A DNA stretch of 29,157 nt from Candidatus Iainarchaeum sp. (GCA_038736825.1 JAVYME010000001.1:13541-42697), one strand, 5' to 3'. Shown: positions 1 to 29,157, counted from the first letter of the stretch. Made by a program: numbers and translations. Notes: generated by a model from the letters alone, not told the origin.

Positions 1-3000
1 GACGCAGTGCAATTCTCAGCATTCCTTGCAAAAAAACTCCTGCAAACAGCAAAAAGCGCGCAAGACAAAATGCAATCCAAAAACTTTAACGCAGAAGCAT
101 TCGGGTGCCCGCAAACCTTTTGCTCTTTTGCAACCCTTGGCCTTTCAGCGCCAGAATACACTGTTTATTTAATGAACGACTTTGTCTCTGCAGAGGCAAT
201 CCAAAACGGTCTTGCCGATGAAGCCAAAAGCCTTTCAAGCTATGCAGTTTCCTTTAGAGCAGAAGAATTTGACGACATTCTCTCCAAGACAACCTCTTTC
301 AGTCCATTCAACATTTACATGAACAAACCCATGCAAGGCTGCGGCAGATACAAAATCAAAATAAAGGGAGCAGTGCAAAACGCATCCAATGCACTCCAAA
401 AAGACAACCTCATATTGTACGTGCAAATAACCGAAGACAGAAAAGTAACACCGGAATGCACCAACAAAATACAAAACATGATGAACTTCCTTCCAGTGGA
501 CACAGGACTGACAAGCAGCAGAACCCTTGCAAGCTGGCTTGGAATGGTGCAAACAGACGAAAAACTCCAAAAAGTCGGAGAAGACTTTGCAACAACCCTT
601 TTTGGCTCAAGCAAGGGCAGGGTTGCAATGAACACAACATCCAACAAATTACACTTATTGCTCAAAGAACTTGAAACAGGCACAATAATGAAACTATCCA
701 TAGGGCAAGTCAGTGAAACAGACGCAAAACCAAACACCATCACACTGGAATTAAACGCAATGTTTGACCAGCCAGACGAACTTGTAAGAAACGAAATCGC
801 CACCAAAGCAAAAGAAGGCTTGAAGGCAATGGCACAAGGAGCATTCGCCTTGGACGCATGCATTGGAGAAAGAGAAGACTATTTAATGATAAGCAAGTTT
901 GAAAAACTCGGCGAACTCACAATAACAGGACCCACAGAAATGGCAGTATATTATGACATGAAAAACTGCATAAAACTCAAAGCCCAGGGAACAATAAAAG
1001 GCGAAAAAATAGCACTAAAAACAAGCTTTAACGACATAGAAACAGCAAACCCGCAAGACAAAGCCGGAATAAAAGCAGCATGGATTGAAATAGAGGAAAG
1101 CGGAACAACAAAAAAAATCACAGAATACTCTGCAACAGAAACTGGAACACCAATAGCGCTTGCCCCGGTTGCAGGAAAAGAAGGCTTGAACGAAAAAGAA
1201 TTCCTTCTCTGCGCTGAAGGAGACAACGGGCAAGTATTCCAAGCAATAGGAAAAAAACTGAAAGTAAAGGCAAAAAGCGTTTCAATTCCAATGGCAAAAG
1301 ACACAGAAGGCGAAATCCGCGTAAGAGAAATGACTGGATGGCATGAAGTCAAAATCAGCACTTGCGGAATGCACCCCTACGCAATGCTCAAAAAAATATC
1401 AGAACAAGCAACAGAAGTCAAAAAATCCGGCAAAAAAATAGAAGCCTACACAGTGCTCGTATGGAAAGGCGACCCAGAAGAACTAACACTAAAATCAATG
1501 ATTGCAGCATGGCGCGCCCACAAACTCAAGCAAACCGAAGGAGAAGAAGACGAAGAAGGAAAAACAATGGAGCAAAAAATTGCAAGAGCGAAAACATACT
1601 CGCTTTGGGTATACTTGGGAGCCTGCTCAGGAATGAACCTTGCATGCAACCTTCTTACAAAAGCTTTTTTGGGGCTTCCAATTGCACTTCCAGATATTTT
1701 GTTCAACTGCGGCATTCCGACAATTGCTGGCTTTTTCGGTCCACAGATTTCCGGAGCATTCGGCGGATTATGGGAAAAAATAAAGACATTTTTCACCGGA
1801 GGACCCGTGGATGAATGGGCAGATGCAGTTCAAGAAGGCACTACTGGCCAAGGTGATGGCGGAACCCAAGCTGAAGCAACAGAAGATGACCTGTTAACAG
1901 GAGCCTTTTTCGGCATAAGTTTTAGGGGTCTCACAAGATTTATTGCTCCAAGCAATAGGGGGGCCTTTACATCAGCCACAGCAGCCCAGTCCGCAATAAA
2001 AGAAACAGCTGAAAGCATTGCAGAGGATGCAACAAAAAGATGGGCGGACAGTTTCATTAAGGGAGCAGTGCAAGAAGATGCTTTGAGGAGCGCCTTAAAA
2101 TCAGACTTGGAGACACGCCTTACTACAAGGCTGACAAGGGCTGCTGAGGAAGCTGCCAGAAAGGGCTCTTTTAAAATAGCAAACCTTGGATTGGATGATG
2201 CTGCTAATGCTGCTTGGGCTGAGTCAAGCGAAAGCATGGTGAGAAGGATTGCTGCAGACCCAAGTGTTGTCAAAAACTCTGTAATGGGAAGCCGCCTTCA
2301 AAAAGCAATATCTGGAAGTGTTGATGACCTAATAGATTCTTCAACCATTGCCCAGAGGGCAACCAAAAATCTCAGCATTAAACCAGGCGCTGGCAACATG
2401 TATCAAAACCCAGCCTCAATGGTTGACGAGCTCACAACCAAAACAATGAGTGAACTGGATGACTTGTTAAGAGCAAACCCCCAGCTAAGAAGCCAAATAG
2501 AAGGAGCACTAAGAAAACAGTTAAGCGAAAGGCTTGGCTCTAGTACTGCCATGCAAGCAGATGATCTAACCAGAGTAGTCAACCAATCCATTAACAATGT
2601 TAAAGCACAGTATGCTGATGACTTGTTTAGTGCAACGAGAGCCAATATTGACGATCAAGTTCGCGCAATGTTTGAAAGCCGGCCTGCTGCAAGCACGGAA
2701 GTGCCAAGAGGCGGACGCATAAAAAATTTTATTGCAAGACTGAAAGATCCGCGGTTTTGGAAAACCCTTGGAAGAGGCATAGTTTGCGGAGCAATTTCAA
2801 ACCTTGCTGGTTTGGTCGCAAAACAATGGTTCCTCAACTATTATTTAGGTGAATTGCATGCTGAGGCTGAAGCTGGCTTGGGCTTTGATTTCACTGGGCC
2901 TTTGTCCAATTATGAGGGCTCTGAAGTGTTCAGAAAGTTTAAGCCTTACAAGATAACCATTGACAGGAAAGAGAATGGCAATGTGCGGGTTTCAATAGAG

Positions 3001-3558
3001 GATTTAACTGTTGAAACTGATGGCGAAAGCGTTGATGAAAAATTAAAGGCAATGGGTGAAGCGATTGCAAAGGATCCTGCAAGCTATTGGAAAGAGGATT
3101 GTGAAGGGCAACTCAAGCAAGGAATTGATGAGTTGATTGGCTGTCTTGCTCCGGATGCTGAATCCGAGGGTGTTACCACAAAGCAAGTGCTTGCATATTA
3201 TGCCAATAATGCTGATATTGCAGCCAATTGTTTTTCAGAAAACCCAGAGCAAAGACTGGATGAAGCGCTCTTAATGGCTGTTCTTTTGACAAAACCCGAA
3301 AACATTTCAAATTGCTGCATTGAAGGCGGTGAGTGCATTAAGAGTGACTGGTATGAGGCGAGCAAGGGTGAAAGGCAGAGAACAATAGGTTGTGCTGCAA
3401 CTCAATTGAGGAGGGCAATGTCTGCTGGAAGCCCAGAGGAAACAGTGAAAAGCCTTGCATTAAACCTTGAAGGCGAAAACCTTGAAAACTATGCAAGGGA
3501 AGTGCTTAAAACATACAATGTTTGGAGAAAGTTTGACATTTGCAGTGATGGTTCTTGA
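1..3558 (+). CDS. Giant surface-protein paralog, C-terminal 1,185 codons only (5' end outside the window). The paralog core (1..~1530) is fused to a unique membrane-spanning C-terminal extension (~1531..3555).
   Basis: Frame +1 is open from base 1. The first codons read D-A-V-Q-F-S-A-F-L-A-K-K, which matches the internal C-D-A-[VT]-Q-[FL]-S motif of the three downstream giants (Cys codons at 11049, 20228, 27420). The GTG at 7 used by the ORF track is therefore an internal Val. Collinear similarity continues downstream (FRAEEFDDI ~ FRNDFDEF; NFLPVDTG ~ YYMPFNG; TVLVWKGDPEELTLKSM ~ TVFFWNPKVIIEKSL). Stop TGA 3556..3558. Confidence 0.85.
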   Translation, partial: DAVQFSAFLAKKLLQTAKSAQDKMQSKNFNAEAFGCPQTFCSFATLGLSAPEYTVYLMNDFVSAEAIQNGLADEAKSLSSYAVSFRAEEFDDILSKTTSFSPFNIYMNKPMQGCGRYKIKIKGAVQNASNALQKDNLILYVQITEDRKVTPECTNKIQNMMNFLPVDTGLTSSRTLASWLGMVQTDEKLQKVGEDFATTLFGSSKGRVAMNTTSNKLHLLLKELETGTIMKLSIGQVSETDAKPNTITLELNAMFDQPDELVRNEIATKAKEGLKAMAQGAFALDACIGEREDYLMISKFEKLGELTITGPTEMAVYYDMKNCIKLKAQGTIKGEKIALKTSFNDIETANPQDKAGIKAAWIEIEESGTTKKITEYSATETGTPIALAPVAGKEGLNEKEFLLCAEGDNGQVFQAIGKKLKVKAKSVSIPMAKDTEGEIRVREMTGWHEVKISTCGMHPYAMLKKISEQATEVKKSGKKIEAYTVLVWKGDPEELTLKSMIAAWRAHKLKQTEGEEDEEGKTMEQKIARAKTYSLWVYLGACSGMNLACNLLTKAFLGLPIALPDILFNCGIPTIAGFFGPQISGAFGGLWEKIKTFFTGGPVDEWADAVQEGTTGQGDGGTQAEATEDDLLTGAFFGISFRGLTRFIAPSNRGAFTSATAAQSAIKETAESIAEDATKRWADSFIKGAVQEDALRSALKSDLETRLTTRLTRAAEEAARKGSFKIANLGLDDAANAAWAESSESMVRRIAADPSVVKNSVMGSRLQKAISGSVDDLIDSSTIAQRATKNLSIKPGAGNMYQNPASMVDELTTKTMSELDDLLRANPQLRSQIEGALRKQLSERLGSSTAMQADDLTRVVNQSINNVKAQYADDLFSATRANIDDQVRAMFESRPAASTEVPRGGRIKNFIARLKDPRFWKTLGRGIVCGAISNLAGLVAKQWFLNYYLGELHAEAEAGLGFDFTGPLSNYEGSEVFRKFKPYKITIDRKENGNVRVSIEDLTVETDGESVDEKLKAMGEAIAKDPASYWKEDCEGQLKQGIDELIGCLAPDAESEGVTTKQVLAYYANNADIAANCFSENPEQRLDEALLMAVLLTKPENISNCCIEGGECIKSDWYEASKGERQRTIGCAATQLRRAMSAGSPEETVKSLALNLEGENLENYAREVLKTYNVWRKFDICSDGS
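1594..1773 (+). other. Cluster of 2-3 hydrophobic, Gly-rich TM-like segments at the start of the C-terminal extension of gene 1.
   Basis: T-Y-S-L-W-V-Y-L-G-A-C-S-G-M-N-L-A-C-N-L-L-T-K-A-F-L-G-L-P-I-A-L-P-D-I-L-F-N-C-G-I-P-T-I-A-G-F-F-G-P-Q-I-S-G-A-F-G-G-L-W, preceded by an acidic linker E-G-E-E-D-E-E-G. Confidence 0.65.
1774..2754 (+). other. ~325-aa Ala/Ser/Arg/Asp/Leu-rich, Cys-free region that is probably alpha-helical; possibly cytoplasmic.
   Basis: Example translations are ...AAQSAIKETAESIAEDATKRWADSFIKGAVQEDALRSALKSDLETRLTTRLTRAAEEAARKG... and ...DELTTKTMSELDDLLRANPQLRSQIEGALRKQLSERLG... The composition is unlike the K/E/T/N-rich, beta-rich remainder of the locus. Confidence 0.5.
2755..2850 (+). 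other. Hydrophobic TM-like segment closing the helical region of gene 1.
   Basis: F-W-K-T-L-G-R-G-I-V-C-G-A-I-S-N-L-A-G-L-V-A-K-Q-W-F-L-N-Y-Y-L-G. Confidence 0.6.
2851..3555 (+). other. ~235-aa C-terminal Cys-containing domain of gene 1; function unknown.
   Basis: Eleven Cys are present, including N-C-C-I-E-G-G-E-C, which is reminiscent of the CC-x3-C element of the Cys modules in the 13202 giant. Confidence 0.45.
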
Positions 3559-3563
3559 AAAAG

Positions 3564-3568
3564 GGTGA
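3564..3568 (+). promoter_or_regulatory. Shine-Dalgarno-like GGTGA for the 3578 start; placed between the upstream stop and the start, which suggests translational coupling.
   Basis: GGGTGAG lies at 3563..3569, 9 nt before GTG 3578 and 5 nt after the TGA of the upstream gene. Confidence 0.5.
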
Positions 3569-3577
3569 GTGGGAAAA

Positions 3578-5275
3578 GTGAATGAGCGCGCCTTCAATCT
3601 TTTCACTGCGCTTTTAGCCCTAATACTCATAATTTTGACAGCAATTCTTGTTTCCAGCATGGTGCAAAGCGAAAGCAATGCCAAAACCATAATTGCCAAA
3701 ACCCTGGATCAAAGCCGCATAGAGTCAATGTCAAGGCTTTTGAGGGCTGACGCATTCCAGTCATTCAATTTTGCGACAAGAGACCAGATGGAGGACTGGT
3801 TCAGCAAGCCGGACAATGTTATTACAGTTTCGGATTTCAATAAGTGGTCTGACTGGAATGCAATCGTGGACGAGTTTGCAAACGACAAGTTCAGGCAGTC
3901 AGAAGTTTTTGCTGGCTATATTGCAAGCAATCTTACAAGCCTGACTTACAAGACAGGCGACAAATATGCTGGCTATGAAATCAAAGTGGAATTTGACCAA
4001 GCAAAATTCAAGGAAATCCTGAAATCTGTTTTAGAGAAAAGCTATAAAGACAAGGATTTTTTTCAAATAATTGACTGTGATGGCACTCCACAGGGATGCC
4101 CTAACGGCAGTTTTTACTTGAACTTAAAGTTTTCCAAGCTCGACCAGTCCCTTTACGAGCAAATGCCGTTAGTGCACGTAAAGCACATCAGTGGCAGCAC
4201 TGAAAGAAGAGACCCGATAATTCCAAAAAACGATTTAAAGGTTTACATTCCATTAAGGGTTTTCAAGGCACTCGCAATAACAAGGGGTTTCATGCACTCG
4301 AGGCTGGACTGGCAAATGAATTCTCAAAACGATTTCGGATATTATTCGCCGAGAATGCAAAACGAAATAGATTCAATGGCTTTAGGGTTTTGCGATTACG
4401 GTTATTGCCATCCAAGAACCAATCCCTATTATCCTCCAGACAAAAAATCCATTAGTGGAAAAAACTGTCCTGACTTTATTGCAAGCGGTTCTTATTACAA
4501 GACAATTGGTGAAACAAGAGGAGAAACCTTTGAATACGAGGCAGGCAACGAAAAAAACACTGAAGACATATTGAAAGACTTGCTTATAAAAAGATTGTGC
4601 GCTCTTTCAAGGGAATTGCTCGGCCAATACGATAATCCTTCAAGCCCGTCTTTTGCAAAAGACTTTGCGGTTTCAAAATCAATAGTGTTCGGACAGCCGT
4701 GTTATGTGAAAGTTGACAGGGCAAGCATTGAAACCACTTCCATTGAATCAAAGGAAATCCTTTTGTCAGCTGATGACAGCAAGCTTGACAAAAGCTTGCC
4801 ATCGCTTGTTTTTAATCCAACAGATGAACCCAATCAATTCGGGGTTCCAAGCTCTCCCTGCCCTTATGATGCAGTTGGATTGCTTAGTGAAAGCCAGCGC
4901 ACTGGAATGTTTTGGGATGGAAAGGAAATCAGGAATTGGAATTATGGAAAAGCAACATGCACTGAAGATTCAGGAATAAGCGGAAAAACAACTTGCACTC
5001 AAATCACAATGGTGAGCCTGATAATAACTTACGAGGAAAAGGATGCAAACTATAAAGTGATAGACAACAGGGATGTGAAAATAAAAATAAGGACTTTTGA
5101 TGCAAATTACACTCCCTTCAATCCAAAAAGGGATATGGGGGATCCTTCCCAGGCTTCAGGTTGCCTTTTCTCAGGCCCGTCGCTTGCAGAACAACAATGC
5201 CATAGGGAAGGCTGGCAGTGCTATGTGCCAGCCTCCAGCATTGCTGGCTGTTATCCTTTGAGAAACCTGCCTTGA
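3578..5275 (+). CDS. Membrane-anchored secreted protein (565 aa) with a type IV pilin-like / class III signal-peptide-like N-terminus and a Cys-containing extracytoplasmic body; function unknown.
   Basis: The ORF in the track is 3569..5275 (GTG). I prefer the in-frame GTG at 3578 because GGTGA (3564..3568) lies 9 nt upstream of it. The N-terminus M-N-E-R-A-F-N-L-F-T-A-L-L-A-L-I-L-I-I-L-T-A-I-L resembles the [KR]-[GA]-F-T-L-I-E + hydrophobic helix of prepilins. The remainder is hydrophilic and carries about 20 Cys. Stop TGA 5273..5275. The gene starts 19 nt after the stop of the upstream gene. Confidence 0.8.
   Translation: MNERAFNLFTALLALILIILTAILVSSMVQSESNAKTIIAKTLDQSRIESMSRLLRADAFQSFNFATRDQMEDWFSKPDNVITVSDFNKWSDWNAIVDEFANDKFRQSEVFAGYIASNLTSLTYKTGDKYAGYEIKVEFDQAKFKEILKSVLEKSYKDKDFFQIIDCDGTPQGCPNGSFYLNLKFSKLDQSLYEQMPLVHVKHISGSTERRDPIIPKNDLKVYIPLRVFKALAITRGFMHSRLDWQMNSQNDFGYYSPRMQNEIDSMALGFCDYGYCHPRTNPYYPPDKKSISGKNCPDFIASGSYYKTIGETRGETFEYEAGNEKNTEDILKDLLIKRLCALSRELLGQYDNPSSPSFAKDFAVSKSIVFGQPCYVKVDRASIETTSIESKEILLSADDSKLDKSLPSLVFNPTDEPNQFGVPSSPCPYDAVGLLSESQRTGMFWDGKEIRNWNYGKATCTEDSGISGKTTCTQITMVSLIITYEEKDANYKVIDNRDVKIKIRTFDANYTPFNPKRDMGDPSQASGCLFSGPSLAEQQCHREGWQCYVPASSIAGCYPLRNLP
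3593..3661 (+). other. N-terminal hydrophobic helix of the pilin-like protein.
   Basis: The translation is F-N-L-F-T-A-L-L-A-L-I-L-I-I-L-T-A-I-L-V-S-S-M, directly after E-R-A. Confidence 0.7.
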
Positions 5276-5436
5276 ATGCAGGCAAAAATGCATGGGAAAA
5301 TATTATAAATAGGAATTCGTTATAATAAGAGAAAGAATAATATAATTGGTTGCCGGCAAAAAAAAGAATTTTCTTTAAAGCAAAAGAAATAAATAAAGAA
5401 AGAGAGCAATTAATTTGGGTAAAGAAATAAGTTAAT
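5276..5436 (+). promoter_or_regulatory. AT-rich intergenic region, probable promoter and 5' leader of the 5448 gene.
   Basis: This is the longest non-coding gap in the window. It has TATA-like tracts (tattataaat 5301..5310; TATAAT 5321..5326; aataatataatt ~5336..5347). It also has an 8-bp palindrome TGCCGGCA (5351..5358), an inverted repeat AAAGAA-tt-TTCTTT (5363..5376), and a 10-nt direct repeat AAAGAAATAA (5383..5392 and 5421..5430). No transcription start site can be assigned from sequence alone. Confidence 0.35.
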
Positions 5437-5440
5437 GGAG
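5437..5440 (+). promoter_or_regulatory. Shine-Dalgarno-like GGAG for ATG 5448.
   Basis: GGAGTGG with a 7-nt spacer to the ATG. Confidence 0.55.
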
Positions 5441-5447
5441 TGGTTTG

Positions 5448-13109: not shown

Positions 13110-13188
13110 AACTAAAAGTTTAAAAAAAAGAATAATAATAAGAGATTAATTAAGGAAAGTTAATTAATAAATATGGATGGATTGTTGC
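13110..13188 (+). promoter_or_regulatory. AT-rich intergenic region, possible internal promoter.
   Basis: Contains aaagtttaaaaaaaag (~13115..13130) and two copies of the palindrome TTAATTAA (13146..13153 and 13160..13167), both TATA-box-like. Confidence 0.3.
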
Positions 13189-13193
13189 GGTGA
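13189..13193 (+). promoter_or_regulatory. Shine-Dalgarno-like GGTGA for ATG 13202.
   Basis: GGTGA with an 8-nt spacer to the ATG. It overlaps the GTG (13190) that the ORF track used as the start. Confidence 0.55.
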
Positions 13194-13201
13194 ACCAGTC
13201 A

Positions 13202-22027: not shown

Positions 22028-22028
22028 C

Positions 22029-22067
22029 GCGCTTCAAAAAAAAGCCCTAAAAAGGCTTTAAAAGCGC
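22029..22067 (+). terminator. Nested stem-loop immediately after the stop of the 13202..22027 gene; candidate terminator or RNA-processing/stability element.
   Basis: The outer stem is GCGCTT (22029..22034) paired with AAGCGC (22062..22067). The inner stem is AAAGCC (22041..22046) paired with GGCTTT (22054..22059), with a 7-nt loop ctaaaaa. It starts 2 nt after TAA and has no long U-tract after it. Confidence 0.4.
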
Positions 22068-22131
22068 ACTCAGAAAAGATTATTAACTTTGAGCGCGAAA
22101 ATTATGACAGCATAAAGCTGGGCTTGCAGCT
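22068..22131 (+). promoter_or_regulatory. Intergenic region, possible promoter or leader of the 22146 gene.
   Basis: Contains AT-rich tracts (aaaagattattaac ~22073..22086; gaaaattatgac ~22097..22108) between the hairpin and the SD-like site. Confidence 0.25.
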
Positions 22132-22135
22132 GGAG
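22132..22135 (+). promoter_or_regulatory. Shine-Dalgarno-like GGAG for ATG 22146.
   Basis: GGAGATAGTGA with a 10-nt spacer from GGAG to the ATG. A weak 5-bp hairpin (AGCTG 22116..22120 / CAGCT 22127..22131) lies immediately upstream. Confidence 0.45.
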
Positions 22136-22145
22136 ATAGTGAAAA

Positions 22146-25100
22146 ATGCCATTAAAGGAAAACATTGAAGACTTGGGTTTTACAATAAGCGAGGGATATG
22201 CAAGCTTAAAGGAAAAAACACGGATTCCACCAATCGCAATAATTGCAGTTTTAGTGATTGCAATTGCAGCCTTTTTTTATTTTTCCCAGCAACCAAAACC
22301 GCCAATAACAACACCAACTGTTGCAACAGTGGGTGCAACCTTTATTTTCAGGGACAATTTTGAAAACCCAATCAACAATCTTTCAGTCACAATAACAGTG
22401 GACAAAAACTCTATGTCGAGAAAAACAGCTGATGGCGGCAAAATAGCCCTTGAAGTGCCAGAAGAAGCCAAAATAAAAATCAGCGTTAACGATCCAGACT
22501 ATGAGGCTTTTGAAAAAACATATTCGGCTGGAAAAAAAGGCTTAAAAGAAATAATAACACTAAAACTCCTCAAAATCCCGCCAGAAAAAAGAGTGCTTCG
22601 CTTTGAAGACGAAAAAGGCCTGATAAAAGGCAAAAAAATCACAGCAATAATAGAATGCAAGGACGGAAGAAGCTTTACAGCAACAGACGAAGACATGGAC
22701 GGCATAATAGAAGTGGAATTGCCGCAAAACTGCAAGGAAATAAAAGTGAGAGCGGAAGTGCCAGGCTATGAAGCCCTGGACACTGGCAGTTTCAGTGGAA
22801 GCGGAACACAAACCATTACCTTGAAAAAAATTGAACGCCCAAAGGGCTCTGCAACCATTAATGTTGTAAAAGAGGACGGAAAACCGCTCACAGGAGTGGA
22901 TTTCACCATAGTGCTTGAAAAGGAAGGCGAAAAAATTCCAGCTTCAAGCCAAGGCTATGCAAGCGTTCACTTTCCAGATCTTTTGACTGGCACATATGAT
23001 GGCACATTCATTGAAAGCACTGGCGAATTCGTTCCAGTAAACCCGGCAGAATTGCACGGCATTGTAATCCAAAAAGGCATGTCAACCGAAAAAACAATAA
23101 AGGTTTCAAGAACAGTAAAGGGCACAATCACTGTTTCAGTAAAAGACAAGGAAACAAGCCAAGCAATAGCCAACGCCAAAGTAATCCTTTCAACTCAATC
23201 CGGAAAACTTTTGGATGAAAAAAACACTGGGGAAAACGCTGAAAAAGTGGTTTTCAGGCTTTACGAAAAAGGCAGTTATTCCATTACTGCAAAAAAAGAA
23301 GGCAAAGTTAATGAAGGCTATTTTCCAGCAACCATTGACGTGAACGACCTCAACACGGAAATAACAATAGAACTGCAAATGATAAAACCAGAGCTTTTGG
23401 GAAAAGCCATAGTGAAAGTGAAAGACGAAGACGGCTTGCCAGTAATGGATGCAAAAGCAATGTTTCGCTATAAAACCACTGGCGCAATAGTTCCCTTGAA
23501 TGGAGAAAAAGACTATGTTTTAACAAACTCTGAAGGAATAGCAGAATTCCAGCTAGGGCCAATTGAAAAAGAAATATACGCTTATGCGCTCAAATACCCT
23601 GCAGAGGGCGGCAAGCCTGAAAACGCGAAAAAAATCGATCCATTGAAACTCAACGAGTTTGAAGTGAAAATCTCCATAGGCAACAGCACTCTTTCAATAA
23701 AAACCCTTGACACCAGCGGAACACTTTTAACTGAAACCTTTTTTGAAGCCTTTGACCAGTCAAATGTTTCAGTAACCCAAGGAAAAGTGCCAGTCCCGCA
23801 AGGAGAACTCGAATATTCAATAAAAGCGGACAAAAAAATCTATCTTGTTTTTTCAAAAAACGGGTACATGGATTTCCAAACAGAATTGTTCCAGTTATGG
23901 CCTGGGGAAAAATTCCCAATCACTGCAATAATGCGAAAGCCTGGCGAAATATTGCAGCCTGAAATTTCCTTTACTGGGGCTTTTGAAAACGGAGTGAAGG
24001 CTGAAAGCCTGAAAGCCGGCAAAACCTATGAAATGAAATTCATGCTCTCCTTTCCAAACAATACAGAGCTTTCAAGCGCTGGCTTTCACTTTAGGGCTGG
24101 AGAAAAGCAAACCCTGAAAGAAGAACAAATATACATTTCCACAGTGAACGCTCCAAATGCAAGCTCGATAAAAAAAGGCGCAACCTATAAACCGCCAAAA
24201 AACGAGGCATTTGAAGAGCCTGCAATGGATTCAGCAAAATGGGCGAGCATTGAATGGGTAAAACCTGCAAGCGGGGTATACAATGTTTCAATAGAAGTGC
24301 GCATAAAAGAAGCAACATACCCTAATTCAAAACTGCCAGTGTACTATCGCGCTTGGAGCGTAAAAGACACCAATTTTGCTCGCACTCCACAAGATGCAGT
24401 GCTTGGCGGCAATGCTGTTTCCCCTTCAAAAGACGGATTGTATGCTGAAACCTTTTCACAGGTTTTCTTTGAAGGCTCAAAACCGTTTTGCGACAAGCCG
24501 TTCTGCATAATGGGAGAATGGCTTTACGACAAGCAAGAGGATATTTTCAAGCCAAAACCCTATTCCATGCTGGTTTTAGGCGATTACAATTACATTTTCA
24601 CCCTTGTCAACAACTCCAAGGAAACCTATAATGAAACAAGATTGCTGTTGAAAAACGAAATGGCAGGCGAAGAAAAACAGGACTTGATGGTAAAATCCTT
24701 CATTTTTTATAATGCTGACAAGGCTTTTTCTTCACAAAACGTGAATGATTTCTCTTTTTCACTGTCATCCCTAGGCAATTTCACATACTCTAAAGACATA
24801 AACTTGAACCTTTCCCTTTTCCCGAAAAACACTGCAGACACACAGTTTTTAGTGCAATTGGTTGGCGACAAACAAGTTGTTTTTGAGGAAAAAATAGGCT
24901 TTAGAATTACAGCAAAAAGCGAACTATTGCTGGAGGCAACCCCTTCAAGCATTGTGCCCTTTGAAGAAACAATCCTTAAAATAAAAGCCAAATCCAAGGA
25001 CAACGGAACAAACATAAAAGGAGTGCTTGTCAAGGCAACACGTGAAACCCCAGACGGACTCTTCCAGGTTTTCGCCAAAACAACAGACAATTCAGGAGAA

Positions 25101-28100
25101 GCAACATTCCAAATTCCAGCCTCAACACCACTCACAAAAATAAAAATTGAAGCTGAAAAAACAGGGTTTGCCCCGAAAAAAATGGAAATAATTGTGGGAA
25201 AGGAAACAATTGACTTCAAGCCAAAAACGCTTTCATCCTCACTTCAAACCACAGGCAAAACAGAGGAAACACTGCCCATAACCTTTTCCAACAGCACTGG
25301 CACAGAATTCGCATTAAAAAAAGCAACCCTTAAAGGCAATTTCAAGGGAATCCTCAACGAACAAGCAATAGCCACCTATCTCGCATCCTGGACAAACACA
25401 AAAATTTCAGCAAAAACCAATCAAGAAATTCCATTGCTTAAAACAGTGCTCTCCTCAAACGCTGAAGACTACATGAAAGGCACTGAAACCCTCAAAGGAG
25501 AACTCGAAATAATAGTGTGGGCGCCAAAATTCCTTGCAGAATACTTGATTTCAATTCCCTTAACAGTAAGCGTTTCAATGGGCGGCCTTCCTGATAATTC
25601 GCCATGCGTCAACATAGAAGGCATTGACGTGCCCAACTGGCAGGCAACAACCGCAAACAATCGCGCTTCAACAGAATTCGACATTTACAATGTGTGCTCC
25701 AAAAACGGGCAAAAAATAAACGTAAAAAACCTGCAGGCAATGCTTGAATGGGAAAGCGATTCCAAAAAAGCAGGCACAATAGAACTCACAATTTTCAATG
25801 CAGACGGCGCTTCAGTCACAGAAGTGCTAAAAGCAGGGGAATGGATTACTTTTTGGCCGGAAATGGGAAAAGACATTTTCGGTTCATTCCATGCAATCCT
25901 CACCTTTACGCCAAAAACAGGCTATCTCAATGAAACAGCAAAATTCAAGGTATTTTTTGACGCGGAAACAATGACAGACAATGGCTTGCAAAAAGTAAAC
26001 AATGGAAAAGTGAAAATCAGTGCAAGCATTCTCTCACTCAACCTGGATGACTGCATTTCAATGCCTGGCGCTGGAGAAAAAGTGGTTCTTGGCGCAGACA
26101 AGGATGAAACAACATTTGAATTGGATGCAACAAACTGCAAGGCAGATGTAACAGTAAGGCTTTGCCCTGGAGACCCTAAATGCAAGGGCGGCACTCAAGA
26201 AGGCGGCATAAGAGTCACACCAATGGAATTCACTCTCACAAAAACAAGCCCAAAGCAAAAAATCACAGTTTACAGAGAACAAATCCCAGGCTTGTACGGA
26301 ATTCCAGTTCAAGCAAGGCTTTCAAGCACTTCCTTCCGCACAGTGCGCACAATCGATTTATTGGTTGAACCAGAAAAAAGCGAATGGTTTGCATTAAACA
26401 GGTATGAAGCATTGCTCAGCAAGGAAACCGACTGGAAAGACACAATAGAACTGAAAAACAGTGCGCCAATGGATTTAGTGGAAATCACTGCAAAATTTTG
26501 CGATAAATGCAAGGACCCACAAAACCCTCCAAAAGAATGCGTTTGGAACTATGTTTTGAAAAAAAAGCCAGAGCAAAGGCCAGAGCGGTGGGCTGAAGCA
26601 CTAACCTGGGGGCTAACAACTGCAGTATCCTGCTGGTGCCTGTTAAACCTTGGAACCTGTGTTGAATCAGGTGGCGCCATTATCAGCAAAATACTGCCTT
26701 TTGAAGCAGAAGAGGATTATGGTCAGCCAATAGCATATTTCAGCCAAAAACCAACACCTGAAACAAACAAAAAAGAGATTACAGCCAATTTCCTCTTTCC
26801 TGGGCCATGGGATGCAATAATATGCGGGGGAGTTGGCATTGTTGTTGGAGTTTTTACTTTCTTGGGAGGCCCAGAATGCAATGAAAAAAAGGATGTTACA
26901 GAAATATTGCGCGATTATATAGTGAAGGTTGGAAATGATCCGAACAGAAAGCTTTCACTTGAAAGCAATCTCTTCAATGCAGTTTGGCATGACACAAACA
27001 GCAATTGGGAAACAGCAGGAATAGAAAAAGTCCCAATAACAATTGTCAACACTTCAAAGACAGCCAAGACAAGCCCGACATACGATGTTTTGTCTGTAAG
27101 CGCAACAGAGCACATTCACAACGATCCAACCCATAAAAAGCCGAAAATGATAATGGAAACACCAAACTTTTCAGACTTAAACATACCTGACACTGAAACA
27201 AGAAAGTATGAACAAAAGTTCCACATGAAATTCACTACAAAAGAAATGATTGACTTTGAGTTGCCTCCACTTGAAGACTTTTACTCTTGTGTTGATGGCT
27301 CCAAGATTGGGATTACTGGCAAGGATGCAAGACCAAAAATAAAATTCAACTGGGACTGGAAGGAAAACAGCGGGATTTCCGCAACAGATTGTGATGCAAC
27401 AAACAAGGACGGCATTTATTGTGATGCAACACAGCTTTCAATTGCAGTAAGCAAGAGAATCCACAAAATAGAGGAATTCCTTGCAGCAAACGGCAACAGC
27501 CTCAAATGCCCAAACAATCCTCAAACCTCTTATTCCAGTGCAGTATTGGAAAAAATAAACAAAGAACAAAGCATGCATGAAGTCGTAAACGGCAAAATTG
27601 GAATGAAAAGCATTTCAGCCACAGCAAACAGTGATTCTGGAACCGTTGCAATATCAGCAATAATAGAAAACAAGAGCTCTAACAGCGCCACTGCAAAAAT
27701 AATAATGGGATTGAGTGGTCCAAACAATTATTTCAATCACTGCCAGCTGGAAGTCACTGTTCCAGCCAATGGCACTACTCCTGCAAAGTGCGATTTCACT
27801 GGCCTTGAAAAGAACAACTTCACTCCATACATTTCAACTGCATACATTGCAGAAAGCAGTGCTTCAGAAATAGATGACACTGAAGTCAAAACCGGCTTTT
27901 TCCTTTCAAACCCATTGCAAGCTACAGAATGCTGGCTCCCATTTTCAACTCAAAAATTCCAAGGTTATCCTGTCATTGAATACTTTTTCAATAAAAGCAT
28001 TCCCAACTGGGAACAATACTTGCAGCAACAGTCTGTGAACTGGCCTGCTGGCTGGCCTGGTGCAACCGAACAGGAAAAAATCGCTTATTTGCGTTCTTTG

Positions 28101-29157
28101 TTTGAGTTCAAGGCAAACCTGATAAAGGATGGTTATGGTGCTGATTTCCAGTCAGACTTTGCCGCATATTATTCTGGTTCCACTTTCTTTGATGTGCCTT
28201 CATGGTTTTATTCTGGTTCAAGCAACCAGTTGTCAGATTATTTCAGGGACCCAGAGAGATTGAAATTCAAGCAAAAATATTCAAGTGAGGCAATACTGCC
28301 CGGGCCTGGAACTTACGAAGTTTACATTGTAATTGATTTTGGCGCTGGCAATTGGAGTTTGTACAAGGATGGAAAACCCAAGGGCAAAATCACTGTTGAA
28401 TTTTACAAGGCAAGCGATCCAATAGTGAATTCTGCCTTTTATTATTTGCCTTTTAACGGGCAAGTGGGATTGCAAACCCAAAACGGAAGGCAGGATTATG
28501 GCTTGAATTATTCAAACCAAAACGAGGAAATTCCAATAAAGGGCGCTCCCTATGATGTGCGCACTGTGCCTTCAAGTGCTTCAAAGGCTTTAATGACACT
28601 GCAAACAAAAAAACAGCAAGACTTAAAGCAGTTGAACAGTTCGCCTTCCACTAGAGGCAACCTGCTGGCAATAGAAATCCAGGGCTCTAATCCATTGCTT
28701 TCCTTTTCTCCAAGTTATGCCACTCCGGTTATATTAAAGGCGTCAGGTGAAAAGGGCAAGCCTTTTACCTCACAATTCACTTTGATTGAAAACGGGCAGC
28801 CAGTCATTGCAGGCAACAATCTTTCTTTTTGGACTGGGCTTGGAAAATGCGCTGACTTTTCAGGAGTGCCAATTAGAGAGGCATTTGATGCCTTCCCGGA
28901 CTCGCGTTCTACGGAAAAATCTTACAAGATTTCATGGGATTCAATTGCTTATGGCGGAAACCTCTATCTTTACTCTGTTTTTTACACTCCGCTTGCAGGC
29001 GCTTATTCGATAACCGCTGATTCCCCAAATTCCTATTTCATGTCACCGGATTCAGGAGAGGCGAAAACAATCGAGGTTTCTGGAATAAATGGAATGAAAA
29101 ACAATTCTCGCTCTGGAAATGACCCTGTTGCCTCAATTGAAAGAATCCTTGAAATGG
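22146..29157 (+). CDS. Giant membrane-anchored surface protein, paralog, 3'-truncated by the window end (at least 2,337 codons; an estimated 40-60 codons are missing).
   Basis: Not in the supplied ORF track, presumably because it has no stop in the window. I translated the frame by hand from ATG 22146 (in-frame TGA at 22140..22142 just upstream; GGAG 22132..22135) to 29156 and found no stop codon. The product is collinear with the two upstream giants. The final residues (...V-A-S-I-E-R-I-L-E-M) align with I-E-S-I-E-K-V-F-E-L-V, about 50 aa before the C-terminus of the 13202..22027 product. Confidence 0.88.
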   Translation, partial: MPLKENIEDLGFTISEGYASLKEKTRIPPIAIIAVLVIAIAAFFYFSQQPKPPITTPTVATVGATFIFRDNFENPINNLSVTITVDKNSMSRKTADGGKIALEVPEEAKIKISVNDPDYEAFEKTYSAGKKGLKEIITLKLLKIPPEKRVLRFEDEKGLIKGKKITAIIECKDGRSFTATDEDMDGIIEVELPQNCKEIKVRAEVPGYEALDTGSFSGSGTQTITLKKIERPKGSATINVVKEDGKPLTGVDFTIVLEKEGEKIPASSQGYASVHFPDLLTGTYDGTFIESTGEFVPVNPAELHGIVIQKGMSTEKTIKVSRTVKGTITVSVKDKETSQAIANAKVILSTQSGKLLDEKNTGENAEKVVFRLYEKGSYSITAKKEGKVNEGYFPATIDVNDLNTEITIELQMIKPELLGKAIVKVKDEDGLPVMDAKAMFRYKTTGAIVPLNGEKDYVLTNSEGIAEFQLGPIEKEIYAYALKYPAEGGKPENAKKIDPLKLNEFEVKISIGNSTLSIKTLDTSGTLLTETFFEAFDQSNVSVTQGKVPVPQGELEYSIKADKKIYLVFSKNGYMDFQTELFQLWPGEKFPITAIMRKPGEILQPEISFTGAFENGVKAESLKAGKTYEMKFMLSFPNNTELSSAGFHFRAGEKQTLKEEQIYISTVNAPNASSIKKGATYKPPKNEAFEEPAMDSAKWASIEWVKPASGVYNVSIEVRIKEATYPNSKLPVYYRAWSVKDTNFARTPQDAVLGGNAVSPSKDGLYAETFSQVFFEGSKPFCDKPFCIMGEWLYDKQEDIFKPKPYSMLVLGDYNYIFTLVNNSKETYNETRLLLKNEMAGEEKQDLMVKSFIFYNADKAFSSQNVNDFSFSLSSLGNFTYSKDINLNLSLFPKNTADTQFLVQLVGDKQVVFEEKIGFRITAKSELLLEATPSSIVPFEETILKIKAKSKDNGTNIKGVLVKATRETPDGLFQVFAKTTDNSGEATFQIPASTPLTKIKIEAEKTGFAPKKMEIIVGKETIDFKPKTLSSSLQTTGKTEETLPITFSNSTGTEFALKKATLKGNFKGILNEQAIATYLASWTNTKISAKTNQEIPLLKTVLSSNAEDYMKGTETLKGELEIIVWAPKFLAEYLISIPLTVSVSMGGLPDNSPCVNIEGIDVPNWQATTANNRASTEFDIYNVCSKNGQKINVKNLQAMLEWESDSKKAGTIELTIFNADGASVTEVLKAGEWITFWPEMGKDIFGSFHAILTFTPKTGYLNETAKFKVFFDAETMTDNGLQKVNNGKVKISASILSLNLDDCISMPGAGEKVVLGADKDETTFELDATNCKADVTVRLCPGDPKCKGGTQEGGIRVTPMEFTLTKTSPKQKITVYREQIPGLYGIPVQARLSSTSFRTVRTIDLLVEPEKSEWFALNRYEALLSKETDWKDTIELKNSAPMDLVEITAKFCDKCKDPQNPPKECVWNYVLKKKPEQRPERWAEALTWGLTTAVSCWCLLNLGTCVESGGAIISKILPFEAEEDYGQPIAYFSQKPTPETNKKEITANFLFPGPWDAIICGGVGIVVGVFTFLGGPECNEKKDVTEILRDYIVKVGNDPNRKLSLESNLFNAVWHDTNSNWETAGIEKVPITIVNTSKTAKTSPTYDVLSVSATEHIHNDPTHKKPKMIMETPNFSDLNIPDTETRKYEQKFHMKFTTKEMIDFELPPLEDFYSCVDGSKIGITGKDARPKIKFNWDWKENSGISATDCDATNKDGIYCDATQLSIAVSKRIHKIEEFLAANGNSLKCPNNPQTSYSSAVLEKINKEQSMHEVVNGKIGMKSISATANSDSGTVAISAIIENKSSNSATAKIIMGLSGPNNYFNHCQLEVTVPANGTTPAKCDFTGLEKNNFTPYISTAYIAESSASEIDDTEVKTGFFLSNPLQATECWLPFSTQKFQGYPVIEYFFNKSIPNWEQYLQQQSVNWPAGWPGATEQEKIAYLRSLFEFKANLIKDGYGADFQSDFAAYYSGSTFFDVPSWFYSGSSNQLSDYFRDPERLKFKQKYSSEAILPGPGTYEVYIVIDFGAGNWSLYKDGKPKGKITVEFYKASDPIVNSAFYYLPFNGQVGLQTQNGRQDYGLNYSNQNEEIPIKGAPYDVRTVPSSASKALMTLQTKKQQDLKQLNSSPSTRGNLLAIEIQGSNPLLSFSPSYATPVILKASGEKGKPFTSQFTLIENGQPVIAGNNLSFWTGLGKCADFSGVPIREAFDAFPDSRSTEKSYKISWDSIAYGGNLYLYSVFYTPLAGAYSITADSPNSYFMSPDSGEAKTIEVSGINGMKNNSRSGNDPVASIERILEM
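22230..22283 (+). other. N-terminal TM anchor of the 22146 giant.
   Basis: P-I-A-I-I-A-V-L-V-I-A-I-A-A-F-F-Y-F follows a ~27-aa charged tail ending T-R-I-P. Confidence 0.75.
22326..23933 (+). repeat. Six tandem beta-sandwich repeats (carboxypeptidase-regulatory-like) at protein level.
   Basis: Examples are GKAIVKVKDEDGLPVMDAKAMFRYK...LTNSEGIAEFQLGP and KGTITVSVKDKETSQAIANAKVILS... Confidence 0.6.
24081..24542 (+). other. Conserved ~155-aa domain of unknown function (copy in the 22146 giant).
   Basis: G-F-H-F-R-A-G ... K-W-A-S-I-E-W ... Y-Y-R-A-W-S ... T-P-Q-D-A-V-L-G ... G-L-Y-A-E-T-F ... C-D-K-P-F-C. Confidence 0.7.
26589..26663 (+). other. Hydrophobic segment H1 in the 22146 giant, at a position equivalent to 17537..17609.
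   Basis: W-A-E-A-L-T-W-G-L-T-T-A-V-S-C-W-C-L-L-N-L-G-T-C-V. Confidence 0.55.
26805..26873 (+). other. Hydrophobic TM-like segment H2 in the 22146 giant.
   Basis: P-W-D-A-I-I-C-G-G-V-G-I-V-V-G-V-F-T-F-L-G-G-P, which lies ~45 aa after H1. Confidence 0.65.
27336..29157 (+). other. Conserved C-terminal module (copy in the 22146 giant, truncated by the window).
   Basis: K-I-K-F-N-W-D-W (27336), C-D-A-T-Q-L-S (27420), F-K-A-N-L-I-K-D-G-Y-G-A-D-F, A-F-Y-Y-L-P-F-N-G (28434..28460), and N-G-R-Q-D-Y-G-L-N-Y. Confidence 0.7.

Follow-up and report, generated by a model that had tools for sequence, protein, structure and literature searches.

Giant Paralogous Proteins at a Conserved Iainarchaeota Locus, Candidate Components of a Cell-Surface Apparatus

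The window analyzed here, a 29,157-nt stretch of Candidatus Iainarchaeum sp. (GCA_038736825.1 JAVYME010000001.1:13541-42697), comes from the lineage Candidatus Diapherotrites (Iainarchaeota, DPANN). It is filled by five open reading frames, A to E, all on the plus strand and separated by gaps of 10, 172, 92, and 118 nt (A-B, B-C, C-D, and D-E, respectively). No RNA genes were found in the window.

1..3558, +: gene A, C-terminal 1185 aa of an A-type giant of ~2,700 aa, cut at its 5′ end
3569..5275, +: gene B, 568-aa pilin-like protein
5448..13109, +: gene C, C-type giant, 2553 aa
13202..22027, +: gene D, D-type giant, 2941 aa (identical to P0001, QXK06_00055)
22146..29157, +: gene E, E-type giant of 2337 aa or more, running off the window ~30 aa before its stop

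The contig begins within A, and the genes upstream of A are known from relatives only; the NCBI record of gene A (QXK06_00040) is marked “partial.” The E ortholog in locus L001 is 2366 aa long, and L001 and L003 each have a C ortholog (2,525-2,553 aa) in the corresponding place. Entries identical to the window proteins are on record in NCBI. NCBIfam models gave nothing above cut-off for the five proteins, and the literature searched does not describe the cluster.

The window is part of a 40- to 50-kb cluster conserved in a single group of very small DPANN archaea, the Iainarchaeota/Diapherotrites, where it takes up ~4% of a 1.0- to 1.2-Mb genome. A search of GTDB species representatives yielded 265 relatives, and almost every genome that carries one is titled Iainarchaeum or unclassified archaeon. 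Among 40 loci that span at least 20 kb, about 35 have the order C-D-E-s1-s2-s3-s4-s5, in which s1 to s5 are five genes for small multi-transmembrane (TM) proteins 3′ of E; the complete genomes CP010424.1 (AR10) and CP064981.1 are among them. All three related loci that reach upstream of A have the order exosortase-like gene, A, B, C; the upstream gene belongs to the exosortase/archaeosortase family (TIGR04178, 35-46 bits against a cut-off of 23), with no named subfamily above cut-off. The relatives' locus also adjoins genes for a FlaI/TadA-like ATPase, a T2SSF-like platform, and 6 to 8 small pilins with [KR][GA]Q signals (K-G-Q|A-F-S-T-F-K-L-L-I-A-A). The neighbor x492 has no significant match in the PDB.

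C, D, and E are clear old paralogs by sequence comparison. Pairwise BLASTP alignments are collinear, with 22-24% identity over 1,094-1,500 aa (E 1.8e-47 to 1.7e-71), and the C termini of D and E share 29% identity over 680 aa (E 4.6e-66). The motifs GxH[FV]RxG, KWxx[IF]EW, R[AG]W[GS], LYA, CxxxxC, and NxC[TS]..K[DN] occur once each and in the same order in all three, and their listed residues are at least 85% conserved among 22 family members. The collinear motifs at low identity that the initial annotation had noticed by eye are thereby confirmed for C, D, and E. D shares 29-66% identity with its orthologs and 24% with E; orthologs from distant genomes are thus closer than paralogs within one genome, as expected of an old duplication. 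Each of C, D, and E has a predicted cytoplasmic motif, a TM helix, about six beta-sandwiches, a ~190-aa domain, Ig-like domains, and the landmark CDAxQ[FL]S; within the window A has the landmark alone, and the remaining features are seen in A orthologs. All-vs-all BLASTP/HHalign comparison of the window proteins gave the A fragment none of the listed motifs and no similarity to C, D, or E beyond the landmark helix (C-D-A-x-Q-[FL]-S...KK, detected by HHalign), so the four paralogs first proposed hold for C, D, and E by BLASTP and for the fourth by orthology only. Conserved Cys pairs (C194/C220, C802/C807, C1175/C1202, and C1308/C1334 in D numbering; 22 family members) bracket individual domains, in agreement with the Cys-bracketed Ig-like domains described earlier. 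HExxH, thioester, and LPxTG motifs are absent from the window proteins, and GxSxG and P-loop pattern matches are few and unconserved, in agreement with the initial annotation, which recognized no enzymatic signature by eye. N-x-S/T sequons had been called frequent, but observed/expected counts reveal no enrichment (C, 29/18; D, 19/19.5; E, 24/20.5; A, 5/7.3).

The giants start with a short conserved segment, predicted to be cytoplasmic, and a TM helix, followed by a predicted exterior portion of 2,300-2,900 aa.

5493..5609, +: signal-anchor (TM helix) of C, Kyte-Doolittle maximum 2.94
13301..13432, +: signal-anchor of D, Kyte-Doolittle maximum 3.36
22206..22298, +: signal-anchor of E, Kyte-Doolittle maximum 2.59

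The single N-terminal helix of the initial annotation is thus present in each of the three, and across 30 family members it is the only consistently strong hydrophobic helix. The leaders (~20-50 aa) look helical by eye. A conserved, predicted cytoplasmic motif, ...W..F.DWLEEKGIP, precedes the helix of C, and a juxtamembrane [DE][KR]G[IL]P is common to C and the A-type orthologs. The junctions read [KR]-G-[IL]-P in the A type and C, K-V-F-P in D, and K-T-R-I-P in E; the G or A at -1 before the helix that marks a prepilin is not found consistently in the giants. A mid-protein TM hairpin on either side of the variable region (in D, aa 1450-1474 and 2108-2132; in E, aa 1488-1506 and 1548-1578) was rejected as a general feature: a TM-like hydrophobicity threshold is exceeded there only in E itself, its L001 ortholog, and the E-type relative P0016.

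Arrays of beta-sandwich domains follow the anchors, and D carries additional regions.

5616..7238, +: array of C, six prealbumin/CarboxypepD_reg-like slots of ~85-90 aa (PF13620, 82.2 bits; units at aa 58-142, 241-328, 333-415, 426-518, and 520-598)
13412..15052, +: array of D, same six-slot type (PF13620, 91.3 bits; units at aa 75-164, 262-351, 356-435, 446-532, and 534-621)
22347..23921, +: array of E, same six-slot type (PF13620, 36.8 bits; units at aa 327-414 and 420-513 significant, others weak)
15635..17539, +: further Ig-like/beta-sandwich domains of D, aa ~816-1450, with a seventh CarboxypepD_reg-like unit (aa 970-1061) and two Cys-bracketed domains
17654..19483, +: D-specific insert, about a dozen Cys-rich ~44-aa repeats (C-x7-C-x5-C-x12-CC-x3-C) and an acidic, E-rich linker

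All three arrays score above the PF13620 (CarboxypepD_reg) gathering cut-off of 32.3 bits. Units were delimited with an iterated HMM, which found five in the six slots (aa ~60-620) of C and D, slot 2 being divergent, and a further CarboxypepD_reg-like unit beyond the array of both at ~aa 945-1060. The “exactly six” repeats reported at the outset are therefore approximate; the six slots stand, but C and D have five HMM units in them and one more downstream, and E has two significant units. About six more Ig-like domains follow the ~190-aa domain in the giants. An AlphaFold2 model of D aa 540-1480 is all-beta (mean pLDDT, 83.5), and Foldseek relates it to generic tandem Ig/ASH/MG arrays at TM scores of 0.1-0.2. 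The length of the D insert differs among D orthologs.

The shared motifs fall mostly in one domain, which the initial annotation gave as ~155 aa and which is delimited here as ~190 aa; each of its motifs recurs once in C, D, and E, and all three keep the motif order.

7308..7880, +: ~190-aa beta-sandwich domain of C (GIHFRAG ... KWTEIEW ... RGWG ... LYA ... C-x4-C)
15062..15634, +: ~190-aa domain of D, with the motifs; all-beta model, pLDDT ~82-94
24006..24578, +: ~190-aa domain of E, with the motifs

Few parts of the N-terminal half of D are as well conserved as this domain, which has invariant or near-invariant G, H, R, K, W, R, P, D, and Y and a C-x4-C pair. A profile search of the PDB revealed no relative (best E, 0.65).

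The giants end in large C-terminal modules.

11049..13106, +: C-terminal module of C, starting at F-C-D-A-V-Q-F-S
20228..22024, +: C-terminal module of D, 599 aa, from Y-C-D-A-T-Q-F-S
27420..29156, +: C-terminal module of E, from Y-C-D-A-T-Q-L-S, incomplete at the 3′ edge of the window

HHalign relates the D and E modules at 100% probability (E 5e-110), C and D at 99.9% (E 1e-36 over 339 columns), and C and E at 99.9% (E 4e-33). The 600- to 700-aa shared module proposed initially is accordingly complete in D and E, limited to the last ~340 columns in C, and absent from A. The AlphaFold2 model of D aa 2090-2945 has a mean pLDDT of 79.6 (mostly 80-97 in the C-terminal module) and a pTM of 0.64. 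Foldseek searches of the module against the PDB and BFVD returned matches to single beta-sandwiches only, CARDB/CBM-like ones among them, with BFVD matches otherwise of low probability. A Pfam scan of 48 C-terminal modules yielded no consistent family, and C, D, and E revealed neither a glycoside hydrolase nor a peptidase fold. Conservation of the distal modules equals or exceeds that of the stalk (D versus P0008, 50.7% against 42.5%), which speaks for a partner that is itself conserved and against a host receptor that evolves fast. D ends in a conserved ...FFWNPK...(about 20 aa)...C-I-x-x-x, and the C termini of the family close with this or a similar sequence. This Cys was considered as a sorting or lipidation signal and rejected; more likely it pairs with a conserved Cys ~35 residues upstream. 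The tripartite sorting signal of motif, TM segment, and basic residues is absent from the C termini of the giants and B, and the giants have no C-terminal hydrophobic segment; nor do they combine a cleaved signal peptide with a signal such as PGF-CTERM, as archaeosortase substrates and S-layer proteins do.

Gene A enters the window inside the landmark, (Y-C)-D-A-V-Q-F-S. Its full-length ortholog P0022 (2727 aa) is 43% identical to A and matches C, D, and E at the N terminus (E 3e-7 to 1e-17), and PF13620 is matched by 15 of 15 full-length A-type relatives (best E, 3.2e-23) and nowhere in the A fragment. From these orthologs, the A type shares the N-terminal architecture of C, D, and E, and we recognize types A, C, D, and E as four anciently diverged giant paralogs, single copy and fixed in order. 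Beyond the landmark helix, the distal module of A has no relation to its counterparts in C, D, and E, and it is twice as long; it begins at ~aa 1,520-1,600 in relatives of 2,650-2,950 aa, of which a profile search found 130 (clusters at 50% identity). A has no Pfam, NCBIfam, or PDB match, and the A-type profile likewise has no significant one in the PDB.

3151..3555, +: terminal domain of A, ~135 aa, with conserved VPEALL...C...I.CAA..L...Y..W

At this position 2 of 89 long relatives have a canonical SLT lytic-transglycosylase domain; one, P0030 from a Candidatus Diapherotrites metagenome-assembled genome, matches Pfam SLT at E 2.3e-10 and is so named by NCBI. The A terminus in the window shares flanking motifs with the SLT-bearing relatives via intermediates and matches canonical SLT members weakly (hhalign E 0.002-0.014; probability, 3-14%). 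It has no match to SLT (PF01464) or any other Pfam family, the catalytic E-S and GLMQ motifs are unrecognizable in it, and only a T-Y-N-V-W block resembles SLT motif 3 (A-Y-N-x-G). A profile of the terminus built without the canonical members found no SLT structure and no significant PDB match.

B is a large type IV pilin-like protein of 568 aa with 14 Cys and a single N-terminal hydrophobic helix, as judged from its N terminus; searches of Pfam, NCBIfam, and the PDB detected no known domain.

3569..3682, +: prepilin-like N terminus of B, ...N-E-R-A|F-N-L-F-T-A-L-L-A-L-I-L-I-I-L

The class III signal was taken to be a short leader with [KR]-[GA] at its end and a hydrophobic helix of ~20 residues immediately after it, and B has this arrangement, reading E-R-A|F-N-L-F in the window. 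At +2, where N or T stands, B departs from the strict FlaFind pattern. In L001, L003, L082, L083, and L084, B orthologs are likewise placed between A and C; orthologs read V-R-G|F-N-L-F-T-A-L-L-A and E-G-G|F-T-L-F-T-A-L-V-A, summarized as [KR]G|F[NT]LFTAL, in support of the pilin-like gene first reported.

DPANN archaea, abundant but for the most part uncultured, are believed to depend on contact with other cells, and to our knowledge the molecules of this contact are almost unknown. The locus is conserved in order and content across Iainarchaeota, and nearly all of its parts are without functional annotation. The window covers the left-hand portion of an operon that is conserved in, and specific to, Iainarchaeota. 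Our preferred account, which we hold to be somewhat more probable than not, is that this operon builds a membrane-anchored cell-surface apparatus; the best reading is that the predicted apparatus is either adhesive or envelope-forming. The uncharacterized cell-surface apparatus of the initial annotation is partly supported by the signal-anchors, the beta-sandwich ectodomain, the conserved order, and the linkage to pilus and exosortase genes. Its small-celled episymbiont agrees in part, in that the source lineage is DPANN, and the adhesion or host contact that it proposed may be a role; we know of no demonstrated host for Iainarchaeota.

In the apparatus that we favor, the giants would be inserted as type II (N-in, C-out) signal-anchored proteins, and the beta-sandwich array would form a semirigid stalk resembling those of NOMO, Sdr/SpaA-type adhesins, and MG arrays, holding the conserved distal modules tens of nanometers off the membrane. 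The four giant types, B, and the small membrane proteins may form one hetero-oligomeric structure, an association suggested by synteny alone, and B would be processed and assembled by the neighboring pilus machinery. The structure would touch a conserved external partner (cell, particle, or polymer) or make an outer envelope canopy. Against this account, no domain with demonstrated binding or catalytic activity was identified in PDB profile and Pfam searches, and the giants have neither the C-terminal tripartite signal nor a consistent prepilin site (D and E have no G or A at the expected position) that would tie them to the neighboring machineries.

The giants could also be the main structural proteins of the envelope, a canopy or S-layer substitute on stalks rather than adhesins, and this scaffold would differ from the preferred reading only in whether the distal modules contact each other or an external partner. 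We regard it as possible, if on the unlikely side. A fixed copy number and strict order phylum-wide, highly conserved distal modules, the large share of a reduced genome given to the cluster, and a NOMO-like spacer architecture would all suit a scaffold, as would the adjacent exosortase/archaeosortase gene, from a family that reportedly processes the Haloferax S-layer glycoprotein. For archaeal S-layer proteins, however, the usual arrangement is a signal peptide that is cleaved off plus an anchor or PGF-CTERM at the C terminus; the giants are anchored at the N terminus and have no C-terminal signal, sequons are not enriched, and a lattice of four 2,300- to 2,900-aa giants would be unusually costly. 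We are more doubtful of a wall-breaching or polymer-harvesting device, whose distal modules would bind and cleave external glycans such as the peptidoglycan of a bacterial partner or prey, similar to what is proposed for giant genes of predatory Omnitrophota. The canonical SLT domains of the two A-type relatives, the position and flanking motifs of the A terminal domain, the CARDB/CBM-like sandwiches, and the invariant W/Y/H/R/D of the ~190-aa domain, reminiscent of lectin-like sites, point that way; the unrecognizable E-S and GLMQ motifs in A, the weakness of the SLT link, which is lost from a profile without canonical members, and the failure to find any glycoside hydrolase or peptidase fold among the other three giants point against it.

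A surface-anchored alpha-2-macroglobulin (A2M)/TEP-like protease trap or defense protein is very improbable. The giants resemble thioester proteins in their strings of MG-like sandwiches: Pfam bMG3 and MG4 match faintly, and Foldseek retrieves A2M, complement C3/C5, CD109, and TEP1 at E 1e-14 to 1e-17. The MG matches nevertheless fall below the Pfam cut-offs and TM scores are ~0.1, which indicates a generic beta-sandwich string; the C-terminal module has no A2M match and the giants have no bait region. This reading is effectively refuted by the lack of the thioester C-[GL]-E-Q in all five proteins and of an alpha/alpha-toroid TED or a CUB in either model, and the giants are not members of the family. 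Least credible is that no conserved system exists and that these are ordinary fast-evolving, strain-specific adhesins or an assembly artifact. Assemblies often break at giant, repeat-rich ORFs, and contigs do end inside A-type genes in the window and two relatives, but the 265 GTDB relatives, the 130 A-module clusters, the conserved gene order, and the identical proteins in NCBI refute it.

A bolder proposal, which we put forward as a long shot, is a new archaeal cell-contact organelle, in which a hetero-oligomer of the four giants would stand on a platform of five small proteins, be linked through B to a pilus-type motor, and be matured by the small exosortase, with a tip on A, derived from a lysozyme-like domain, that engages or in some species cleaves the wall of a bacterial partner. 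Were this true, Iainarchaeota would live on bacteria as wall-breaching episymbionts or as predators, and the molecules with which one DPANN lineage makes contact would have been identified. More generally, the four giants, the modular pilin, the five small membrane proteins, and the small exosortase are candidates for the envelope or contact apparatus of Iainarchaeota. The ~190-aa domain and the ~600-aa C-terminal module are confidently modeled and have no solved or curated relative.

Among known systems, NOMO shares with the giants a single-pass anchor and a long rod of CarboxypepD_reg-type sandwiches. The NOMO2 beta-sandwich is the sole significant PDB match (E 8.2e-6, D-type profile) in sequence and profile searches with D, A, B, x492, the D-type and A-type profiles, the ~190-aa domain, and the A terminus, and faint Pfam matches are NOMO1-like. 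NOMO, however, is a C-terminally anchored protein of ~1,200 aa from the eukaryotic endoplasmic reticulum, without the ~190-aa domain and distal modules, and the likeness is confined to one repeat type. Bacterial giant adhesins (Sdr/SpaA-type MSCRAMMs, Bap/LapA/SiiE-type, and PrgB) are likewise very large, with tandem beta-sandwiches and a distinct distal module. SdrD_B scores above the Pfam cut-off in D (43 bits versus 29.7), SpaA narrowly passes its cut-off in C (27.6 versus 23.1) and matches D and E weakly, and PrgB Ig domains are among the Foldseek matches of the D model. The giants differ in their N-terminal anchor, in distal modules that are conserved rather than variable, and in forming four diverged paralogs in a fixed phylum-wide operon with pilin-like, s1-s5, and exosortase-family genes. 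LPxTG, RTX, and T1SS signals and protease and nuclease domains are absent from the window proteins, apart from one chance D-x-D-x-D-G in E, and no Pfam family of RTX, Bap, or LPxTG giant adhesins is matched. Giant surface proteins have been reported in DPANN/CPR, as SPEARE of Nanohaloarchaeota (PMC6642349), and giant genes in Omnitrophota (bioRxiv 10.1101/2023.11.21.568195), where they are implicated in cell-wall degradation in predatory members; like the giants here, both occur in small-genome organisms. Exosortase/archaeosortase systems (PGF-CTERM/ArtA) are represented by the family gene upstream of A in the three relatives, but the giants and B lack the substrate signal. Type IV pilus tip and minor-pilin systems (PilY1, Streptococcus sanguinis PilB, TadG with VWA, and the archaeal bindosome Bas) compare through the ATPase, platform, and pilins beside the relatives' locus. 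Neither a PilY1 beta-propeller nor a known pilin globular domain was detected, and the giants have no consistent prepilin cleavage motif. B resembles modular or minor pilins in its prepilin-like N terminus on a 520- to 580-aa body, without E5. One relative also encodes a protein of 1,479 aa that combines a TM helix at its N terminus with a VWA domain.

The window (29,157 nt) has a G+C content of 40-45% and contains five ORFs, all on the + strand, of which A, C, D and E are referred to here as giants.

nt 1-3558, + strand: A, 1185 aa, open at the left end
nt 3569-5275, + strand: B, 568 aa, pilin-like
nt 5448-13109, + strand: C, 2553 aa
nt 13202-22027, + strand: D, 2941 aa
nt 22146 to window end, + strand: E, at least 2337 aa

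Minus-strand ORFs are at most 320 aa long and all lie inside the five genes, and no tRNA or Rfam family was found in the window. The single DNA tandem repeat (18557-18601) codes for an acidic E-rich stretch, EEETEEEEEEEEETPP, inside D. NCBI annotates all window proteins as "hypothetical"; D is identical to QXK06_00055, from a Candidatus Diapherotrites archaeon MAG (contig of 157,382 nt), and A to QXK06_00040. The latter record is marked "partial," so the contig starts at window position 1 and the N-terminal half of A is missing from the assembly too. The contig start (window 1-40) falls within a conserved landmark of A, (Y-C)-D-A-V-Q-F-S. The two closest A-type homologs (database proteins P0020 and P0021) likewise lie on short contigs of 3.5-3.8 kb, and assemblies seem to break at A-type genes.

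The initial annotation proposed at least four divergent giant paralogs of low identity. All-against-all BLASTP confirmed collinear paralogy at 22-24% identity (E values of 2e-47 to 2e-71) for C, D and E: C and D align over 1,094 aa (24%, 2e-50), C and E over 1,258 aa (22%, 2e-47), and D and E over 1,500 aa (24%, 2e-71), with 29% identity (5e-66) across the last 680 aa of D and E. C, D and E each contain every motif listed in that annotation once, in one common order, and A and B contain none; motif residues and four Cys pairs reach at least 85% conservation across an alignment of 22 sequences. The single strong N-terminal hydrophobic helix was also recovered in each of these three giants. CarboxypepD_reg scored over the Pfam cut-off in all three. 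The count of "exactly six" repeats of ~85-90 aa is approximate, since in C and D an iterated HMM found five units in the six ~90-aa slots (aa ~60-620) and another at aa ~945-1060. The reported lack of an enzymatic signature stood: HExxH, thioester and LPxTG motifs are absent, and matches to GxSxG and the P-loop are few, lack conservation and occur at about the chance level. N-x-S/T sequons, described as frequent, are not enriched.

For A, paralogy was not demonstrable within the window and was recovered only through full-length A-type orthologs. BLASTP with its 1185 aa returned no similarity to C, D or E (best E value, 2.2), and neither did HHalign of the family alignments (best E value, 0.09). 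An exhaustive profile search yielded 130 cluster representatives of the A family; in most, the protein is 2,650-2,950 aa long and the A module begins at residue ~1,520-1,600. On a related contig, the gene for the closest full-length relative, P0022 (2727 aa, 43% identical to A), lies directly upstream of the B ortholog. The first ~1,000 aa of P0022 align collinearly with C, D and E (E values of 3e-7 to 1e-17), and other A-type proteins reach 1.6e-25. GVHVRLG, YRAW, FYA and CSKGLC are present in P0022, and CarboxypepD_reg was detected in all 15 A-type proteins scanned. The landmark [YF]-C-D-A-x-Q-[FL]-S...KK...C-P is common to all four types and marks the start of the distal module. As judged by sequence comparison, four ancient paralogs exist, yet only three are demonstrable inside the window.

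Past the landmark, homology between D and E extends over the full remaining length (HHalign probability, 100%; E value, 5e-110), and the last ~340 columns of C are common to both (99.9%; 1e-36 and 4e-33). A has nothing further in common with C, D and E there, and its module is twice as long. No consistent Pfam family was found among 48 diverse C-terminal modules. D/E-type C-termini (window 21900-22024 in D; orthologs in related loci L005-L063) carry a conserved F-F-W-N-P-K, ~20 residues and C-I-x(0-6), and C-type termini carry the variant C...W-N-P. The terminal Cys of the D/E type probably pairs with a conserved Cys ~35 residues upstream. At the other end, a conserved segment, predicted to be cytoplasmic, precedes the TM helix in C (window 5448-5560), D (13202-13340) and A-type orthologs (P0022-P0049). 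Its motif, Y..[LIV]E[DE].[WY]Y...D.L..KGIP.Y...D.[LI]E.[KR]G[IL]P[SA][FL]P, matched no known motif; the giants may share this segment as a signal for docking or targeting.

D contains an insert (window 17654-19483; D aa ~1489-2098) in which a Cys-rich unit of ~44 aa (C-x7-C-x5-C-x12-CC-x3-C) is repeated about a dozen times, bringing the protein to 100 cysteines; the acidic stretch mentioned above lies within this insert. The insert has no counterpart in C and E, matches no Pfam family and varies in length among D orthologs (2,449-3,216 aa). Between the C-terminal module and the beta-sandwich array, the variable insert has Gly-rich, moderately hydrophobic helices on either side.

window 17537-17611: D aa 1450-1474, flanking the insert
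window 19511-19585: D aa 2108-2132, flanking the insert
window 26607-26663: E aa 1488-1506
window 26787-26879: E aa 1548-1578

The second helix of E is TM-like (Kyte-Doolittle, 2.15). A membrane hairpin was rejected as a general feature because these helices are under the TM threshold in most orthologs.

An AlphaFold2 model of D aa 540-1480 (20-sequence alignment; mean pLDDT, 83.5) is an unbroken series of beta-sandwiches ending in a moderately hydrophobic helix. Foldseek matched it in the PDB to tandem Ig/ASH arrays (hydin and other ciliary central-pair proteins), alpha-2-macroglobulin/complement MG arrays, PrgB and titin; although E values go down to 1e-23, the low TM-scores of 0.1-0.2 mean that what is matched is a generic string of beads. 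An alpha-2-macroglobulin reading was rejected, as the thioester motif is absent and the models contain no TED-like helical domain. The model of D aa 2090-2945 (mean pLDDT, 79.6; pTM, 0.64), in which most blocks after the first ~210 residues score 80-97, matched only single sandwiches, such as CARDB, in the PDB and BFVD (best E value, ~2e-4). In profile searches, the sole PDB-sequence match was a NOMO2 repeat (E value, 8e-6), and nothing was returned for the conserved ~190-aa domain, an A-type protein or the A terminus.

In 2 of 89 long A-type relatives the C-terminus is occupied by a canonical SLT lytic-transglycosylase domain; one of them, P0030 (Pfam E value, 2.3e-10), comes from a Candidatus Diapherotrites archaeon and is named "SLT domain-containing" at NCBI. 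In the window's A, the last ~130 aa are part of a conserved terminal domain that has flanking blocks in common with the SLT domain through intermediates (group-to-group HHalign, 97% and then 27%). The direct HHalign link is weak (E values of 0.002-0.014), and the SLT catalytic motifs are not recognizable in A. We regard a possible SLT relation of the A terminus as a lead, not a finding.

Loci were fetched around D-type, E-type and A-type proteins. In all three diverged genomes examined, an exosortase/archaeosortase-family gene (195-216 aa; TIGR04178, 35-46 bits versus a cut-off of 23) directly precedes the A-type giant.

L082 9293-9943, outside the window: exosortase/archaeosortase-family gene
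L083 9340-9927, outside the window: exosortase/archaeosortase-family gene
L084 9280-9930, outside the window: exosortase/archaeosortase-family gene

The small protein scored over the cut-off of no named subfamily. Nearby are genes for a FlaI/TadA-like ATPase (PF00437), a T2SSF-like platform protein and about 2-8 small proteins with archaeal class III signals, e.g., K-G-Q|A-F-S-T-F-K-L-L-I-A-A. Among the cluster proteins examined, a C-terminal sorting signal was found only in a 509-aa neighbor in L082, which has a signal peptide and C-terminal anchor. At 2541-6980, flanked by pilin-like genes, L082 also encodes a protein of 1,479 aa that combines an N-terminal TM helix with VWA domains (PF00092, 62 bits) and resembles PilY1/TadG-type pilus-associated proteins; none was seen in L083 or L084. 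B starts with E-R-A|F-N-L-F-T-A-L-L-A and its orthologs with V-R-G|F-N-L-F-T-A-L-L-A or E-G-G|F-T-L-F-T-A-L-V-A, N-termini that identify B as a large pilin-like protein, as initially annotated.

Downstream, about 35 of the 40 loci that span 20 kb or more, including those of the complete genomes CP010424.1 (AR10) and CP064981.1, have genes for five small multi-TM proteins, s1-s5 (about 85-170 aa each), after C-D-E in the same orientation.

L001 26284-28309, outside the window: s1-s5 after the E ortholog
L002 17492-19457, outside the window: s1-s5 after the E ortholog
L003 27033-28905, outside the window: s1-s5 after the E ortholog

The set always comes after the last giant. No Pfam family was found for any of the five; s1, s2 and s3 are mutually related (HHalign, 94-97% for s1-s2 and s1-s3, 66% for s2-s3). 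Next in the cluster are a coiled-coil protein and one of ~500 aa whose family is unknown. The Candidatus Iainarchaeum andersonii locus (L054) keeps C-D-E, with a further giant rather than s1 after E; such an extra giant also occurs in four other genomes (L040, L046, L052 and L061), giving a family size of four to five or more.

The giants carry one N-terminal anchor each and sandwich domains bracketed by disulfides, and their four diverged types keep a constant order in single copy. Together with the pilin-like partner, the dedicated small membrane proteins, and the pilus and exosortase neighborhood, these features point to one multicomponent cell-surface structure anchored in the cytoplasmic membrane. 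The most plausible role of the beta-sandwich array would be that of a stalk or spacer. Conservation of the distal modules equals or exceeds that of the stalk, and what varies is the Cys-rich insert in D; this pattern of sequence conservation suggests a conserved partner or lateral contacts, not an arms-race receptor. The structure may serve in adhesion or in envelope scaffolding. The giants have no consistent prepilin site and no exosortase-type C-terminal signal. Giant beta-sandwich surface proteins are an already known kind, and no description of this cluster was found in the searchable literature; new here is an operon of four paralogs and their accessory genes, along with two modules without a known relative.

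Nearly all family members come from genomes titled Iainarchaeum or unclassified archaeon. Some few contigs are labeled Micrarchaeota, Thaumarchaeota, Chloroflexi or Falkowbacteria, and in L019, L047, L048 and L057 the archaeal cluster is filed under Chloroflexi, Falkowbacteria or Thaumarchaeota MAGs; these filings and the non-archaeal labels probably reflect mis-binning.
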